Shown here: one piece after another, positions 28,082 to 61,611 of the stretch | How positions within the stretch are numbered: the first letter of the stretch is position 1 | How the letters are laid out: each line of letters opens with the position of its first letter | Assembly (NCBI GenBank): GCA_964016885.1 | Contig: OZ024750.1 | Location: 11,284,001-11,348,000 of the forward strand | Reading direction: 5' to 3' | Source: Eledone cirrhosa | Taxonomy: Eukaryota | DNA length: 64,000 nucleotides | Program-made: the position numbers and the translations under genes | The notes under the pieces: generated by a model | The model's database searches: none | Told to the model about the DNA's origin: nothing | The model's input: only the letters and a program-made list of their open reading frames with translations

Positions 28082-28985
28082 AATAATTGTTTCTACTGTT
28101 GGCACAAGGCCAGCAATTATCCCAGTACATTACTGGTACTTTATTTTATCGACCCCGTAAGGATGAAAGGCAAAGTTTACCTCGGCGGGATTTGAACTCA
28201 GAATGGCAAGGGCCGTAATTCTATGCGTCAAAGCATGGCGTCCGACCCTCTACCGATACTGCCAATCCACCGCCCTAGAAGGATAATAATAATGGTTTCT
28301 TATACAGGCACAAGGCCAGCAATTTGGGGGAGGGGAGGAGAAAGTCGATTAAATCGACCCCATTACGTCACTGGTACTTTATTCTATCGATCCCGTAAGG
28401 ATGAAAGGCAAAGTTAACCTCGGCGGGATTTGAACTCAGAATGGCAAGGGCCGTAACTCTATGCGTCAAAGCATGGCGTCCGACCCTCTACCGATACTGC
28501 CAATCCACCGCCCTAGAAGGATAATAATAATGGTTTCTTATACAGGCACAAGGCCAGCAATTTGGGGGAGGGGAGGAGAAAGTCGATTAAATCGACCCCA
28601 TTACGTCACTGGTACTTTATTCTATCGATCCCGTAAGGATGAAAGGCAAAGTTAACCTCGGCGGGATTTGAACTCAGAATGGCAAGGGCCGTAACTCTAT
28701 GCGTAAAGCATGGCGTCCGACCCTCTACCGATACTGCCAATCCACCGCCCTAGAAGGATAATAATAATGGTTTCTTATACAGGCACAAGGCCAGCAATTT
28801 GGGGGAGGGGAGGAGAAAGTCGATTAAATCGACCCCATTACGTCACTGGTACTTTATTTTATCGACCCCGTAAGGATGAAAGGCAAAGTTAACCTCGGTG
28901 GGATTTGAACTCAGATCATAAAGGAACGTATCTCTTTGCTGGAAAGCATGGCGTCCGACCCTCTACCGATACTAACAACCACCTT
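28082..28985 (-). mobile_element. Head-to-tail array of four SINE-1 units (period ~238 bp)
   Basis: Identical translated segments start at 28223 and 28461 (238 apart), and a third follows; internal units are nearly identical. Confidence 0.92.
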
Positions 28986-31208: not shown

Positions 31209-31420
31209 TGGGGGTGGGAAAGAAAGAGAAGGTTACTTGTCAGTACCATAGCGTTATTCATAATAACGAGGTATATCCATTATATACAAAAGTTATGAAA
31301 TAACAATTGTTGGATATACATAAAACAACGAGCATTGAATGAACAGAGGACTCAATATATACGTTGTATCTAGCATTTATGATAATGAATGTGCATAGAA
31401 ATCATATATATATATATATA

Positions 31421-31612
31421 GTTTTAATATAGATGAGATTCTACAGGACTAGAACTCTTTCATTCATTAGAAATCATCAGGAATCTTGATGATTTCTAAT
31501 AAATGAAACAGTTCTAGTCCTGTAGAATCTCATCTATATTAAAACTTTTATACTCTGCTATGTATTGAGTACCTTACTTACTGTGGTTACCTCCGATTCA
31601 ACCCGGAATAAC
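31421..31612 (+). mobile_element. Family C fold-back short element in (TA)n
   Basis: Palindrome 31421-31545 centred at about 31484, then a tail containing GTATTGAGTACCTTAC ending in (TA)n. Confidence 0.85.
31436..31486 (-). ncRNA. Type I hammerhead ribozyme (family C)
   Basis: Reverse complement AGATTC-CTGATGA-TTTC taat GAAT-GAAAGAG ttctagtc CTGT-A-GAATCT has a perfect 6-bp stem I. The opposite arm keeps GAAACAG, restoring stem III ACAG/CTGT. Confidence 0.75.
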
Positions 31613-31631
31613 GTATATATATATATATATA

Positions 31632-49658: not shown

Positions 49659-49689
<31 letters not shown>

Positions 49690-49693
<4 letters not shown>

Positions 49694-49875
49694 AAAAAGT
49701 ATGACCCCGACGGCAGAGCTCAAGCCGTTTCGACGGCTATTTCTGGACTCAAAATAGTCGTCGAAACGGCTTGAGATTTGCCGTCGGCGTCATACTTTTT
49801 TCCCACTCTACTACCCTAAGTATTGAGTACTCTGGGGCGTTATGGTCCATCTGGTTCCTTACCACATTTCCTTTG

Positions 49876-49877
<2 letters not shown>
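49690..49877 (+). mobile_element. Family B fold-back short element in (TA)n
   Basis: Palindrome 49692-49803 plus tail CCCACTCTACTACCCTAAGTATTGAGTACTC..ACCACATTTCC; (TA)n on both sides. Confidence 0.85.
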
Positions 49878-49915
<38 letters not shown>

Positions 49916-57382: not shown

Positions 57383-57420
<38 letters not shown>

Positions 57421-57424
<4 letters not shown>

Positions 57425-57605
57425 AACGAGTAGGACCCCGACGGCTGAGCTCAAACCGTTTCGACGGCTAACCAGAACTAGCCGTCGAAACGGCTTGAGC
57501 TCAGCCGTCGGGGTCCTACTCGTTCCTAATACCCACTCTACTACCCTAAGTATTGAGTACTTTGGTGCGTTATGGTCCATCTGGTTCCTTACCACATTTC
57601 CTTCG

Positions 57606-57608
<3 letters not shown>
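57421..57608 (+). mobile_element. Family B fold-back short element in (TA)n
   Basis: Near-perfect palindrome 57421-57528 plus the conserved tail. Confidence 0.88.
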
Positions 57609-57859: not shown

Positions 57860-57957
57860 TGTAAACCTATACATGCAGACACACAATATACGTGTGTATA
57901 TATATATATGTGTGTGTGTGTGTAAACCTATACATGCAGACACACAATATACGTGTG

Positions 57958-57988
<31 letters not shown>

Positions 57989-58207
57989 AAACCTATACAT
58001 GCAGACACACAATATACGTGTGTATATATATATGTGTGTGTGTGTGTAAACCTATACATGTAGACACACAATATACGTGTGTATATATATGTGTTTGTGT
58101 GTGTGTGTGTAAACCTATACATGCAGACACACAATATACGTGTGTATATATATATATATATGTGTGTGTGTGTAAACCTATACATGCAGACACACAATAT
58201 ACGTGTG

Positions 58208-58238
<31 letters not shown>

Positions 58239-58333
58239 AAACCTATACATGCAGACACACAATATACGTGTGTATATATATATATATGTGTGTGTGTGTA
58301 AACCTATACATGCAGACACACAATATACGTGTG

Positions 58334-58387
<54 letters not shown>

Positions 58388-58418
58388 CCTATACATGCAG
58401 ACACACAATATACGTGTG

Positions 58419-58458
<40 letters not shown>

Positions 58459-58489
58459 CCTATACATGCAGACACACAATATACGTGTG

Positions 58490-58535
<46 letters not shown>

Positions 58536-58566
58536 CCTATACATGCAGACACACAATATACGTGTG

Positions 58567-58605
<39 letters not shown>

Positions 58606-58639
58606 AAACCTATACATGCAGACACACAATATACGTGTG

Positions 58640-58676
<37 letters not shown>

Positions 58677-58710
58677 AAACCTATACATGCAGACACACAA
58701 TATACGTGTG

Positions 58711-58746
<36 letters not shown>
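57860..58746. repeat. Composite minisatellite, 13 units: constant GTAAACCTATACATGCAGACACACAATATACGTGTG plus variable (TA)n(TG)m
   Basis: Directly visible; unit length 59-85 bp. Confidence 0.95.
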
Positions 58747-58918: not shown

Positions 58919-58920
<2 letters not shown>

Positions 58921-59110
58921 CTTTCGCTGTATTTTTTTACTAAAGAAATATTAGCCTGATAGTTGGGTTTAGAATTCTCTAAGAAATGGAAAAAATTGAG
59001 TATTGACTTAGATGGGAGTCGAACCAACATCTTTGGTTATCCAGATCAATATGTTACCATTACACCAACAGCACAGGGGTCTCGATAACCAAAGATGTGG
59101 GTTCGACTAG
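58919..59110 (-). mobile_element. Family D short element with tRNA-like head (59004-59074) and inverted 5' fragment
   Basis: Reverse complement TG-GTGT AATGGTA ACAT-A-TTGAT CTGGATA ACCAA-AGAT-GTTGG TTCGACT CCCAT gives D, anticodon and T arms but no acceptor pairing. An inverted copy lies at 59084-59108. Confidence 0.7.
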
Positions 59111-59167
59111 CTGGAAAGAATTAATCATAGCTATTCGATATAGGTTCGGTTTCGATAAACATAAAAA

Positions 59168-59491
59168 GAAGGCGCGTGGCTGTGTAGTTAGAGAATGGGA
59201 TTCGCAATCGTGAGGTTGTGAGTTCAATTCCCTGGAAAGGCGATGCCTTATGTCCTTGAGCAAGACACTTCCTTTCACGTAGCTCCTTCTGCCTGGATTT
59301 GCACCGGTAGATATTATTAACAATAGGACGGTGGATTGGCAGAATCGGTAGAGCGTCAGATACCATGCTTTGTAGCATAGATTTATGGCCCTTTAAGTTA
59401 TGCCTTTCATCCTTATAGGGTCGATAAAATAAAGTACCAGTAATGTACTAGGATAATTGCTGGACTTGTTTCAAAAGTAGAAACAATTATT
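59168..59491 (+). mobile_element. SINE-2 head (59168-59310) followed by a deleted SINE-1 (59326-59491)
   Basis: GAAGGCGCGTGGCTGTGTAGTT..TCCTTGAGCAAGACACTT, then a SINE-1 head and tail. Confidence 0.8.
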
Positions 59492-59929
59492 AGCGATTGG
59501 AAATCTCAATGGAAACATTGTTTCCTTGGTCCGATTTGATAAGCACCAGCAGACTCGTTAAGTGAGGTCGGGGATCTTATCGATCGTTCGTTAAATAAAA
59601 AAAAGACACTAGATAAGGCTATAAGGAATAGTTAACAAAAGCACTATTTAACAGAAACTTTCGTATGATGTCTAGTAAGTTCTTAATGGCGGTTCCGCAT
59701 TGCGGTTTTAAAGCAAATATAAATGTAAGTAGGCAGGCACAGAACGAATCATGATCTGGTGACATACAAGAATCTGTAATTATAGATATGGCATGATTGC
59801 TGATTTGTCTCAATGGAGGATAATACTCTTATTTAATGAGGGTTTTCCTCTAAAGTTGATAACACAATGCATTTCATACAATATCTCTGCTTTGTTTTTC
59901 TGTCCTGCATGTGTGTATGTATCTATGGT

Positions 59930-60008
<79 letters not shown>

Positions 60009-60102
60009 TATATATGTTTATATGTTTATCTCGAGTTCAATCGGGGATAACCACAGTAAGTTAGTTCTAGTCCTGTAGAAGCCATTTTATATATATATAT
60101 AC

Positions 60103-60138
<36 letters not shown>

Positions 60139-60144
60139 AAAAAT

Positions 60145-60196
60145 GGCTTCTACGGGATTAGAACTGTTTCATTCGAAAACAATCATCAGAAAAGCC
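60145..60196 (-). ncRNA. Family C hammerhead variant
   Basis: Reverse complement GGCTTTT-CTGATGA-TTG tttt CGAAT-GAAACAG ttctaatc CCGT-A-GAAGCC. Stem I differs from the 31436 copy on both strands while keeping pairing. Confidence 0.65.
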
Positions 60197-60339
60197 CTTT
60201 CCTCATGATTTCTTTCGAATGAGTCCTGTAGAAGCCATTTATATATAAAATATGATATTTACACTGTACTAATGTTTTAAGTACCTTACTTACTGAGGTT
60301 ACCCCCCATTAGAACCGGGACTCACCCACACACACACGT

Positions 60340-60389
<50 letters not shown>

Positions 60390-60391
<2 letters not shown>

Positions 60392-60658
60392 CTTTCACCG
60401 TATTTTTTTACTAAAGAAAATTTAGTCTGATAATGGGGTTTAGAACCCTCAGATAAATGGAAAAAGATGAGTATTGACGTACATGGGAGCCACATCTTTA
60501 GTTATCCAGACCATGTACGTCAATACTCATCCTTTTCCATTTATCTGAGGGTTCTAAACCCCATTATCAGACTAAAATTTCTTTAGTCTAAAAATACGGT
60601 GAAAGCTATTCTATTTTCTAATTTCAAACCTGCTCACTGTTTCAAAACATATTTACTA

Positions 60659-60660
<2 letters not shown>
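60390..60660 (+). mobile_element. Family D fold-back element in (TA)n
   Basis: Arms of about 95 bp (60392-60486 and 60511-60605) surround a tRNA-head remnant, plus a 3' tail shared with 61041-61186. Confidence 0.85.
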
Positions 60661-60689
<29 letters not shown>

Positions 60690-60691
<2 letters not shown>

Positions 60692-60820
60692 ACGGAGGAG
60701 TTGTGGTAAGGAATCAGAAGGACCATAACGCACCAGAGTACTCAATACTTAGGGTAGTAGAGTGGATAATAGGAGAAAGTATGACCCCAACGGCAGAGCT
60801 AAAGCCGTTTCGACGGCTAT

Positions 60821-60826
<6 letters not shown>
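60690..60826 (-). mobile_element. Family B element in (TA)n
   Basis: Reverse complement GAAACGGCTTTAGCTCTGCCGTTGGGGTC plus tail. Confidence 0.8.
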
Positions 60827-60871
<45 letters not shown>

Positions 60872-60875
<4 letters not shown>

Positions 60876-60992
60876 ATATAGAAGATATTCTACAGTCCTG
60901 TAGTAGGTCTTCTATATTAAAACATTTATACTCTGCTATGTATTGAGTACCTTACTTACTGTGATTACCTCCGATTCAACCCGGAATAACTT
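60872..60992 (+). mobile_element. Family C short fold-back fragment
   Basis: TTTAATATAGAAGATATTCTACAG tc CTGTAGTAGGTCTTCTATATTAAA plus the family C tail. Confidence 0.75.
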
Positions 60993-61002
60993 ACATATAT
61001 AT

Positions 61003-61036
<34 letters not shown>

Positions 61037-61040
61037 ATAT

Positions 61041-61186
61041 ACGTCAATACTCATCTTTTTCCATTTCTCCGAGGGTTCTTAACCCCACTATCAGGCTAAA
61101 TAATTGCTTTAATTTTTTAGTCAAAATACGGCGCTAGCTTACATTTCTAATAATTTCAAACCAACTCGCTGTTTCGAAAATATTCT
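61041..61186 (+). mobile_element. Family D body and tail without head, in (TA)n
   Basis: ACGTCAATACTCATCTTTTTCCATT..GAGGGTTCTTAACCCC..TCAAACCAACTCGCTGTTTCGAAAATATT. Confidence 0.8.
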
Positions 61187-61298
<112 letters not shown>

Positions 61299-61366: not shown

Positions 61367-61611
61367 ATATATATATATATTCTTATATATATATATTCTT
61401 ATATATATATATATAGCTAAACACTACAAGGTATTGTCTGTATATATATATATATATATACAGACAATACCTTGTAGTGTTTAGCTATGTCACTTTACGT
61501 TCTCAGTTAATATTCTGTTAGTTCCTCATCCAACACTTCTCCATTCCAAGAGAAGAGGCAGTTGGGAGTAGTTTCCAATGTCCTTCCACACAGCAATGAT
61601 GTGAAGTCAAT

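Follow-up and report, generated by a model that had tools for sequence, protein, structure and literature searches.

A tRNA-headed, non-coding tandem unit in Eledone cirrhosa, probably inserted into (TA)n tracts by PLE machinery

The window, which is the whole stretch of DNA analysed, comprises 64,000 nt of Eledone cirrhosa (GenBank assembly GCA_964016885.1, contig OZ024750.1, positions 11,284,001 to 11,348,000 of the forward strand). Between 58919 and 61186 it carries three copies of a repeat, here family D, that share a body with the hairpins GGGTT/AACCC and GACTAAA/TTTAGTC. The copies and both hairpins had been recorded in an earlier note made from the letters alone, and it is now clear that the copies are fragments of a larger unit. 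Positions in that unit are given as u, with u1 the first cloverleaf base of the young copy at L012:1440. The features are as follows, including those of family E, a neighbour that is not part of family D and serves as an internal control.

58919..59074, minus strand: older family D copy, main arm from u1 to about u157; 135 of 161 positions identical to the D1 unit over u5-u164 (59070-58919 aligned)
59004..59074, minus strand: decayed tRNA-like cloverleaf containing an A box and a B box, u1-u71
59070..59108, plus strand: short inverted arm, u20-u58, 5'-to-5' with the main arm of the 58919 copy; 37 of 39 identical
60343..60389, no strand: (TA)n target tract left of copy 2, read from the sequence
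60390..60512, minus strand: copy 2, short arm covering u28 to roughly u157-162 and lacking 6 nt of the T arm; 124 of 136 identical
60511..60657, plus strand: copy 2, long arm from u60 to about u205, from the alignment (inverted repeat I6)
60659..60690, no strand: (TA)n tract right of copy 2, read from the sequence
60690..60826, minus strand: family E, 3' end of an ORF-bearing element
61041..61188, plus strand: copy 3, a solo arm of subfamily D2 that spans about u65 to the long end at u204; 145 of 153 identical to D2
57420..57608, 49689..49878 and, at another locus, L061:787-2732: further places of family E

The older copy at 58919 has a short-type 3' end that abuts (GA)n. The earlier note had placed its tRNA-like head exactly, although the head is decayed; ARAGORN calls no tRNA in the window, and none lies in the window among the 150 of 202 Rfam matches listed. 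Inverted 5' duplications had been proposed for two copies, and these correspond to the arms at 59070-59108 and at 60512-60390/60511-60657, the latter forming a long plus short pair of the PLE type. The third copy, described as beginning near the tRNA 3' end, does start there, inside the 3' strand of the acceptor, with TA on both sides. The 60390 and 61041 copies lie in (TA)n and have no poly(A), as had been noted.

Other repeats are found in the same window. Unique flanking DNA is mirrored on either side of a (TA)n tract at 61411-61490 and at a second locus, L173, where the 35-nt mirror surrounds a family D insertion and represents an inverted target duplication. Another TA-inserted family with inverted arms occurs at 60030-60340, 60862-61000 and 31405-31622; it shares a short stretch with family E and probably represents one more PLE end. 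A tRNA-headed SINE family of ordinary appearance is abundant, occurring at 59170-59500 and in more than 20 other places, and part of it forms a 238-bp tandem of 3.6 copies at 28121-28973. The minisatellite at 57860-58746 has units of 63-71 bp, composed of a fixed core plus (TA)n(TG)n.

Family E is probably a PLE, judging from an RT-type YRDDG motif in its ORF, weak tblastn similarity to the ORFs of PLEs, either Pfam-confirmed or related to these (E 7e-7 to 1e-5), and its ends; the ORF has no Pfam or PDB match. Our guess is that it is a Hydra-like PLE. Among 55 matches, 34 continue upstream into the RT-bearing ORF, and 25 of 26 inverted pairs combine a long and a short arm. Family E also has a hammerhead-like region, with a non-canonical core, in which stem II is long and stem III palindromic; the arms of the family accumulate at a single 5' position within stem II. 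Elements with Pfam-confirmed RT and GIY-YIG domains are present elsewhere in the genome, with frames of up to 1,096 codons. Similarity between family D and the sampled PLE ends is marginal, the best case being a hairpin resembling one of family E (p about 0.01 in 48 tests, Naiads lying outside the sample).

Family D is a closed, non-coding unit of 260-290 bp that consists of a cloverleaf followed by a structured spacer. Three subfamilies (D1, D2 and D3) were distinguished, with unit lengths of 260, 271 and 290 nt. The earlier note had left open whether the consensus begins at the tRNA 5' end or runs into an RT ORF, and it does neither: in the 30 best matches, drawn from 1,753 first-look candidates in the 3.0 Gb genome of 1,796 contigs, the unit extends to u260 and then joins head-to-tail to the next tRNA. 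The u260/u1 junction has 155 exact pattern matches (reversed control 0). Exact patterns from within the unit gave 4,457 matches for the 24-mer at u68-91, 5,101 at about u131-149 and 864 inside the tRNA, which are lower bounds on the number of family D arms (reversed controls 0). Subfamily variants are visible in contigs of three sequencing runs; run X4 (organism B) is not counted as a second species because it yielded only 7 shallow contigs.

Two long arrays were read, with 24 and 26 full units that differ from their own array consensus by about 9%. In L063, the 26-unit array, the left side is an inverted short arm and the right side a long end, as in the small insertions. Variants shared among array units peak at lags 3, 6 and 10 and at lag 2 (L063; L061 and L228), showing later segmental duplication within the arrays.

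No ORF is attached to the unit. Among 104 5' flanks without an assigned partner arm, none has shared non-unit sequence at the junction, only other pieces of family D; the single PLE-ORF match in these flanks is antisense and lies behind a TA tract. A coding remnant within the unit was rejected (tblastn E of at least 0.035), and a GIY-YIG fragment beside family D in L020 belongs to a separate element across a TA tract. The alternative offered in the earlier note, that the repeat is a PLE terminus, is therefore not borne out in the sample, as none of its arms leads on into an ORF or into non-unit sequence shared between copies. A related possibility is an autonomous PLE, such as a Naiad without hammerheads, of which family D would be the pseudo-LTR and whose copies with an ORF fall outside the sample. 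The insertion footprint described below is indeed that of PLE ends, the D1 spacer at u145-188 loosely resembles a remnant of hammerhead stem III, and Naiads, which are described as having no canonical hammerheads and (TA)n targets, are present in octopuses (PMC8557442). However, each unit closes onto the next, in runs of up to 26, the 104 flanks yielded nothing shared beyond family D itself, and family E readily showed its upstream element in the same loci. We regard a pseudo-LTR as improbable.

Insertion of family D was examined in 302 unique arms and 94 head-to-head pairs, with five array loci and 20 PLE loci left out; the loci were sampled either as top hits or as the first hits on contig 1. 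Arm 3' ends cluster in two zones about 45 nt apart, a short zone at u152-172 and a long zone at u204-216. Using end windows drawn post hoc from data already seen, 77 of 84 classifiable pairs combine a long and a short arm, where 42.1 would be expected, and none of 100,000 permutations reaches this value. The remaining inverted pairs include 6 short-short and 1 long-long, and 10 of the 94 have an end outside both windows. (TA)3 follows 238 of the 302 arm 3' ends, against a background of 1,446 of 13,128 positions. A run of A8 was found after 0/302 arms, and a target duplication, sought as a non-simple direct repeat of at least 9 nt, in 0/94 pairs. Together with 55 tandem arms, the inverted pairs constitute partial tandems with inverted 5'-truncated copies. 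In several pairs, including those in L011, L012 and L030, neither arm contains the other, and both must therefore have been copied from a longer template.

These arrangements match published descriptions of PLEs. PLE insertions are reported to form partial tandems with an inverted 5'-truncated copy and a 30-40 bp tail on one side, and to favour (TA)n (PMC8557442). The tail is explained as the stretch between two internal RT start sites, both DNA strands being cut and extended at an AT-rich target (PMC11167929). Of the features of non-autonomous PLEs, family D shares the partial tandems, the two-site tail and the (TA)n target without duplication. The insertion footprint, read with the published PLE biochemistry, makes it highly probable that family D is mobilised by PLE machinery. 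The earlier note had suggested a SINE moved by Penelope-type machinery, and had held that a tail matching a known LINE 3' end, with ordinary target-site duplications and few inversions or (TA)n flanks, would speak against it. The end rule and TA flanks proved frequent and target duplications absent from the pairs, so the machinery stands, on the end rule, TA targets, inverted arms and absence of both poly(A) and duplications. The label SINE fits only loosely, since the consensus is a closed tandem unit that does not start at the tRNA 5' end.

An ordinary tRNA-derived SINE moved by a LINE, with the inversions and TA flanks secondary, would account for a dispersed, non-coding element of less than 700 bp with a tRNA head and A and B boxes. 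However, there is no poly(A) or repeat tail and no target duplication, the 3' ends are internal and follow the long/short rule, and copies read through head-to-tail. The end rule largely refutes this reading, which we consider the least likely of those discussed here.

In young copies the head gives a complete match to RF00005 (49.7 bits, gathering score 29, E 1e-9), and ARAGORN calls a tRNA in 12 of the 30 family D loci. It is the best-kept part of the unit, with 67 of 72 columns identical in the three subfamilies versus 52 of 109 in the distal spacer, and the A and B boxes are intact in D1, D2 and D3. A pattern built from leader and trailer only, giving a sample chosen without regard to the head, has 1,182 matches, and all 100 of those listed hold the same cloverleaf. 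Lineage changes in the head fall in the anticodon loop or the D loop or improve pairs. The anticodon loop varies by lineage and has lost the equivalent of U33, a Ser-type anticodon is combined with a short variable arm, and in D3 the top two acceptor pairs are broken. By these features the head is not a working tRNA. It bears some resemblance to a Gln tRNA; a motif search for a Gln-like parent gave 0 matches, and no close parent was found among the 15 of 16 host tRNA-like matches compared (best 47/72) from an Rfam search that scored 63 of 552,091 candidates. A separate tRNA-derived repeat is represented by L261 and L263-L271, a dispersed family of high-scoring tRNA-like copies whose flanks are alike and whose anticodons vary (called as Ala, Val, Asp and Thr).

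Base pairing between the 18 nt preceding the tRNA and u74-91 lengthens the acceptor stem beyond a 3-nt bulge. All 18 pairs of this leader/trailer helix form in D1, and four are non-Watson-Crick, each a G-U on the tRNA strand; in D2 two of the G-U pairs become A-U but one C-A mismatch is added. Over this region the tRNA strand folds much better than its complement (-36 to -41 versus -23 to -29 kcal/mol). In a unit-length RNA cut at u1, the trailer is predicted to pair with the 3' end of that same RNA (probability 0.80-0.97), and the 18-bp helix would keep such an RNA in the form of a nicked circle. Whole-unit circular folding is modestly better than that of shuffles (z -2.6, -1.6 and -1.2). Three spacer hairpins recur in all subfamilies. 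One spacer helix has a T-A to C-G double change in D2, and another spacer hairpin tolerates an 11-nt insertion that extends the helix; these helix changes appear to be few independent events and do not amount to proof of covariation. A T5 run at u81-85, inside the trailer, is kept in all subfamilies. Such a run should end Pol III transcription, here before the spacer is reached, and its position directly after the tRNA is therefore a difficulty for a simple SINE.

The 5' ends of arms concentrate in one region. In a sample of 108 arms drawn by position, 62 have their 5' end at u55-69 (0.068 per nt), compared with 0.003 per nt at u70-130, a stretch this sample under-counts as part of it was anchored at u68-91, and 0.006 per nt at u9-54; in 24 arms anchored further 3' the values are 0.059 (u55-69) and 0.004 (u70-130). 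Head-to-head joins cluster around three 4-base palindromes (u61-69), which is also where solo arms stop. The pile-up is read as stalling of the RT on entering the T arm, suggesting therefore that the template is folded; it may also mark a cut or start site near u60. Fifty-one arms reach u8; 16 of them stop between u-8 and u+8, whereas 35 run on into the previous unit, and a monomer starting at the tRNA is therefore not the main template. The u-8 to u+8 zone has 1.5 to 4 times the flanking hazard, with the ends spread out; neither u1 nor u72 stands out as a sharp peak among the copy ends, and no precise RNase P or RNase Z end is seen. An RNase Z product as template was rejected, just 1 of the 108 ends lying at u72.

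Rare variants are shared 8-11 times more often by partner arms (48/12,212) and by successive passes (20/6,659) than by random copies (111/308,772 sites). Successive passes within an insertion differ by 5.6%, a smaller figure than the roughly 9% of old-array units from their consensus. The template is therefore expected to be either a circle or a young homogeneous multimer rather than an old diverged array. These two cannot be distinguished from DNA sequence; we lean slightly towards a circular template over a linear multimer. No misincorporation scar is present at the A58 equivalent (m1A58; 4/188), and there is no ADAR-type A-to-G excess (ratio 1.13, p 0.30).

The lack of an RNA-editing or modification scar would suit amplification at the DNA level, of a satellite or a rolling-circle (Helitron-type) unit with no RNA step, as would the periodic sharing of variants in the long arrays, which reflects later DNA duplication. 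However, 5' truncation is strand-polar, the two fixed internal 3' ends form a pattern common to an RT-bearing element, and the G-U-biased helices occur on one strand only. Amplification without RNA is accordingly given a very low probability, close to that of LINE mobilisation.

A hammerhead, as defined in PMC10085705, was sought in D1-D3 and four control families using all block orders and variant cores. No core heptamer, canonical or variant, is present on the tRNA strand of D1, D2 or D3, whereas core-like heptamers were found in all four control PLE-end families; the full descriptor recovered only one of the four controls. Antisense hammerhead-like matches in family D are AT-rich, non-canonical and absent from D3. 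Rfam finds no ribozyme in family D at E<=5, a weak result as Rfam missed PLE hammerheads at the gathering score, and family D may hold a ribozyme of unknown kind. A separate PLE family in the 3' region of L086 (and at L020:2560-2610) has a hammerhead-like core, apparently a U3-A8 variant, with a palindromic minimal stem III.

Our preferred reading, to which we assign a probability of about 0.7, is that family D is a tRNA-headed closed tandem unit inserted into (TA)n by a PLE, probably from a circular RNA cut at the tRNA. A PLE protein would cut both strands within (TA)n, and reverse transcription would begin at internal positions of the RNA, one strand using the short site (u152-172) and the other the long site (u204-216). 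The RT would usually stop on entering the T arm at u55-69, and the two cDNAs would be joined at the 4-base palindromes of u61-69. Read-through transcripts would be cut before successive tRNA folds by RNase P-like host enzymes, replacing the hammerhead, and the purine-rich 3' end of the unit would pair over 18 bp with the pyrimidine trailer, holding the ends for ligation. A promoter may additionally be provided by the intact A and B boxes. That the tRNA part acts in this way, as a cut-and-close handle for the unit RNA, is suggested by its conservation and predicted folding and is put forward tentatively, at somewhat less than even odds.

The tRNA may instead serve a PLE passenger only as an internal Pol III promoter, with leaky read-through of the T5 run producing linear multi-unit RNAs and no cutting or circularisation. 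Consistent with this, each subfamily retains intact A and B boxes, D3 is abundant despite its damaged acceptor stem, 5' ends are in mild excess near u-8 to u+8, and ribozyme cleavage is described as unnecessary for PAc insertion in vitro (PMC11167929). However, the T5 run that on general knowledge should stop Pol III is kept in every subfamily, conservation extends to the sequence between the boxes and to the leader/trailer helix, though a promoter needs neither, and the 35 of 51 arms noted above extend more than 8 nt upstream of the tRNA. A promoter-only role is thus considered rather unlikely, but it is the strongest competitor of a closed unit RNA cut at its tRNA.

Among known systems, metazoan non-LTR retrozymes are the most similar, being non-coding tandem units of similar size that range from monomers to long arrays, with PLE mobilisation from a circular RNA template proposed (PMC7229834; preprint 10.64898/2026.07.22.740005). 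The unit lengths of family D fall within the retrozyme range of about 170-400 nt. However, retrozymes are defined in those sources by a type I hammerhead in each unit, in place of which family D has a full cloverleaf and the leader/trailer helix, with no core on the tRNA strand. The Chlamys non-autonomous PLEs (MRC1) are likewise PLE passengers in multi-copy head-to-tail form, in a clade mostly without hammerheads, but no tRNA is reported for MRC1-type elements in the account of PMC8557442. The schistosome Sm-alpha/Sj-alpha repeats are high-copy, both SINE-like and satellite-like, and have a tRNA-derived head (tRNA-Gln in S. mansoni); Sm-alpha carries a hammerhead, though, and PLE-type ends are not part of its description in PMC2770079. 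Short, non-autonomous tRNA-derived SINEs share the internal A and B boxes but are described as needing a LINE RT and being copied as monomers from a 3' tail (PMC3531059), whereas family D has internal 3' ends, tandem read-through and the T5 run after the tRNA; the sampled arms and pairs gave no sign of a LINE-partner RT (poly(A) 0/302, target duplication 0/94). The Cassandra TRIMs of plants are, like family D, non-autonomous, with a captured Pol III gene in the repeat and tandem arrays, but the gene is 5S rather than tRNA, the machinery is that of LTR elements and there is no PLE footprint (PMC7215508). By analogy, Cassandra is the LTR-world counterpart of family D.

In the literature searched, with repeat libraries (Repbase, Dfam) and supplements outside the search, no PLE-moved tRNA element is described. 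In an octopus annotation (PMC13282606), 893 SINE families are given as recently active and unclassified, and family D may be catalogued in repeat libraries as an unclassified SINE. Family D is real and is most probably a variant form of non-autonomous PLE passenger. If the interpretation is correct, it is a tRNA-headed element moved by PLE and not by LINE machinery. On a broader scale, and more tentatively than for the handle itself, ribozyme-free 'tRNA-retrozymes', circles cut by tRNA-processing enzymes, closed on an 18-bp splint and copied by PLEs, could have arisen repeatedly in animals. The role of the hammerhead in PLEs is stated to be an open question (PMC8557442), and family D bears on it. 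Recently active, ribozyme-free and only 260 nt long, with two start zones and one stop zone mapped, it offers a minimal substrate for in vitro PLE assays, which can show what a passenger must contribute: cutting and circularisation, a promoter, or neither.
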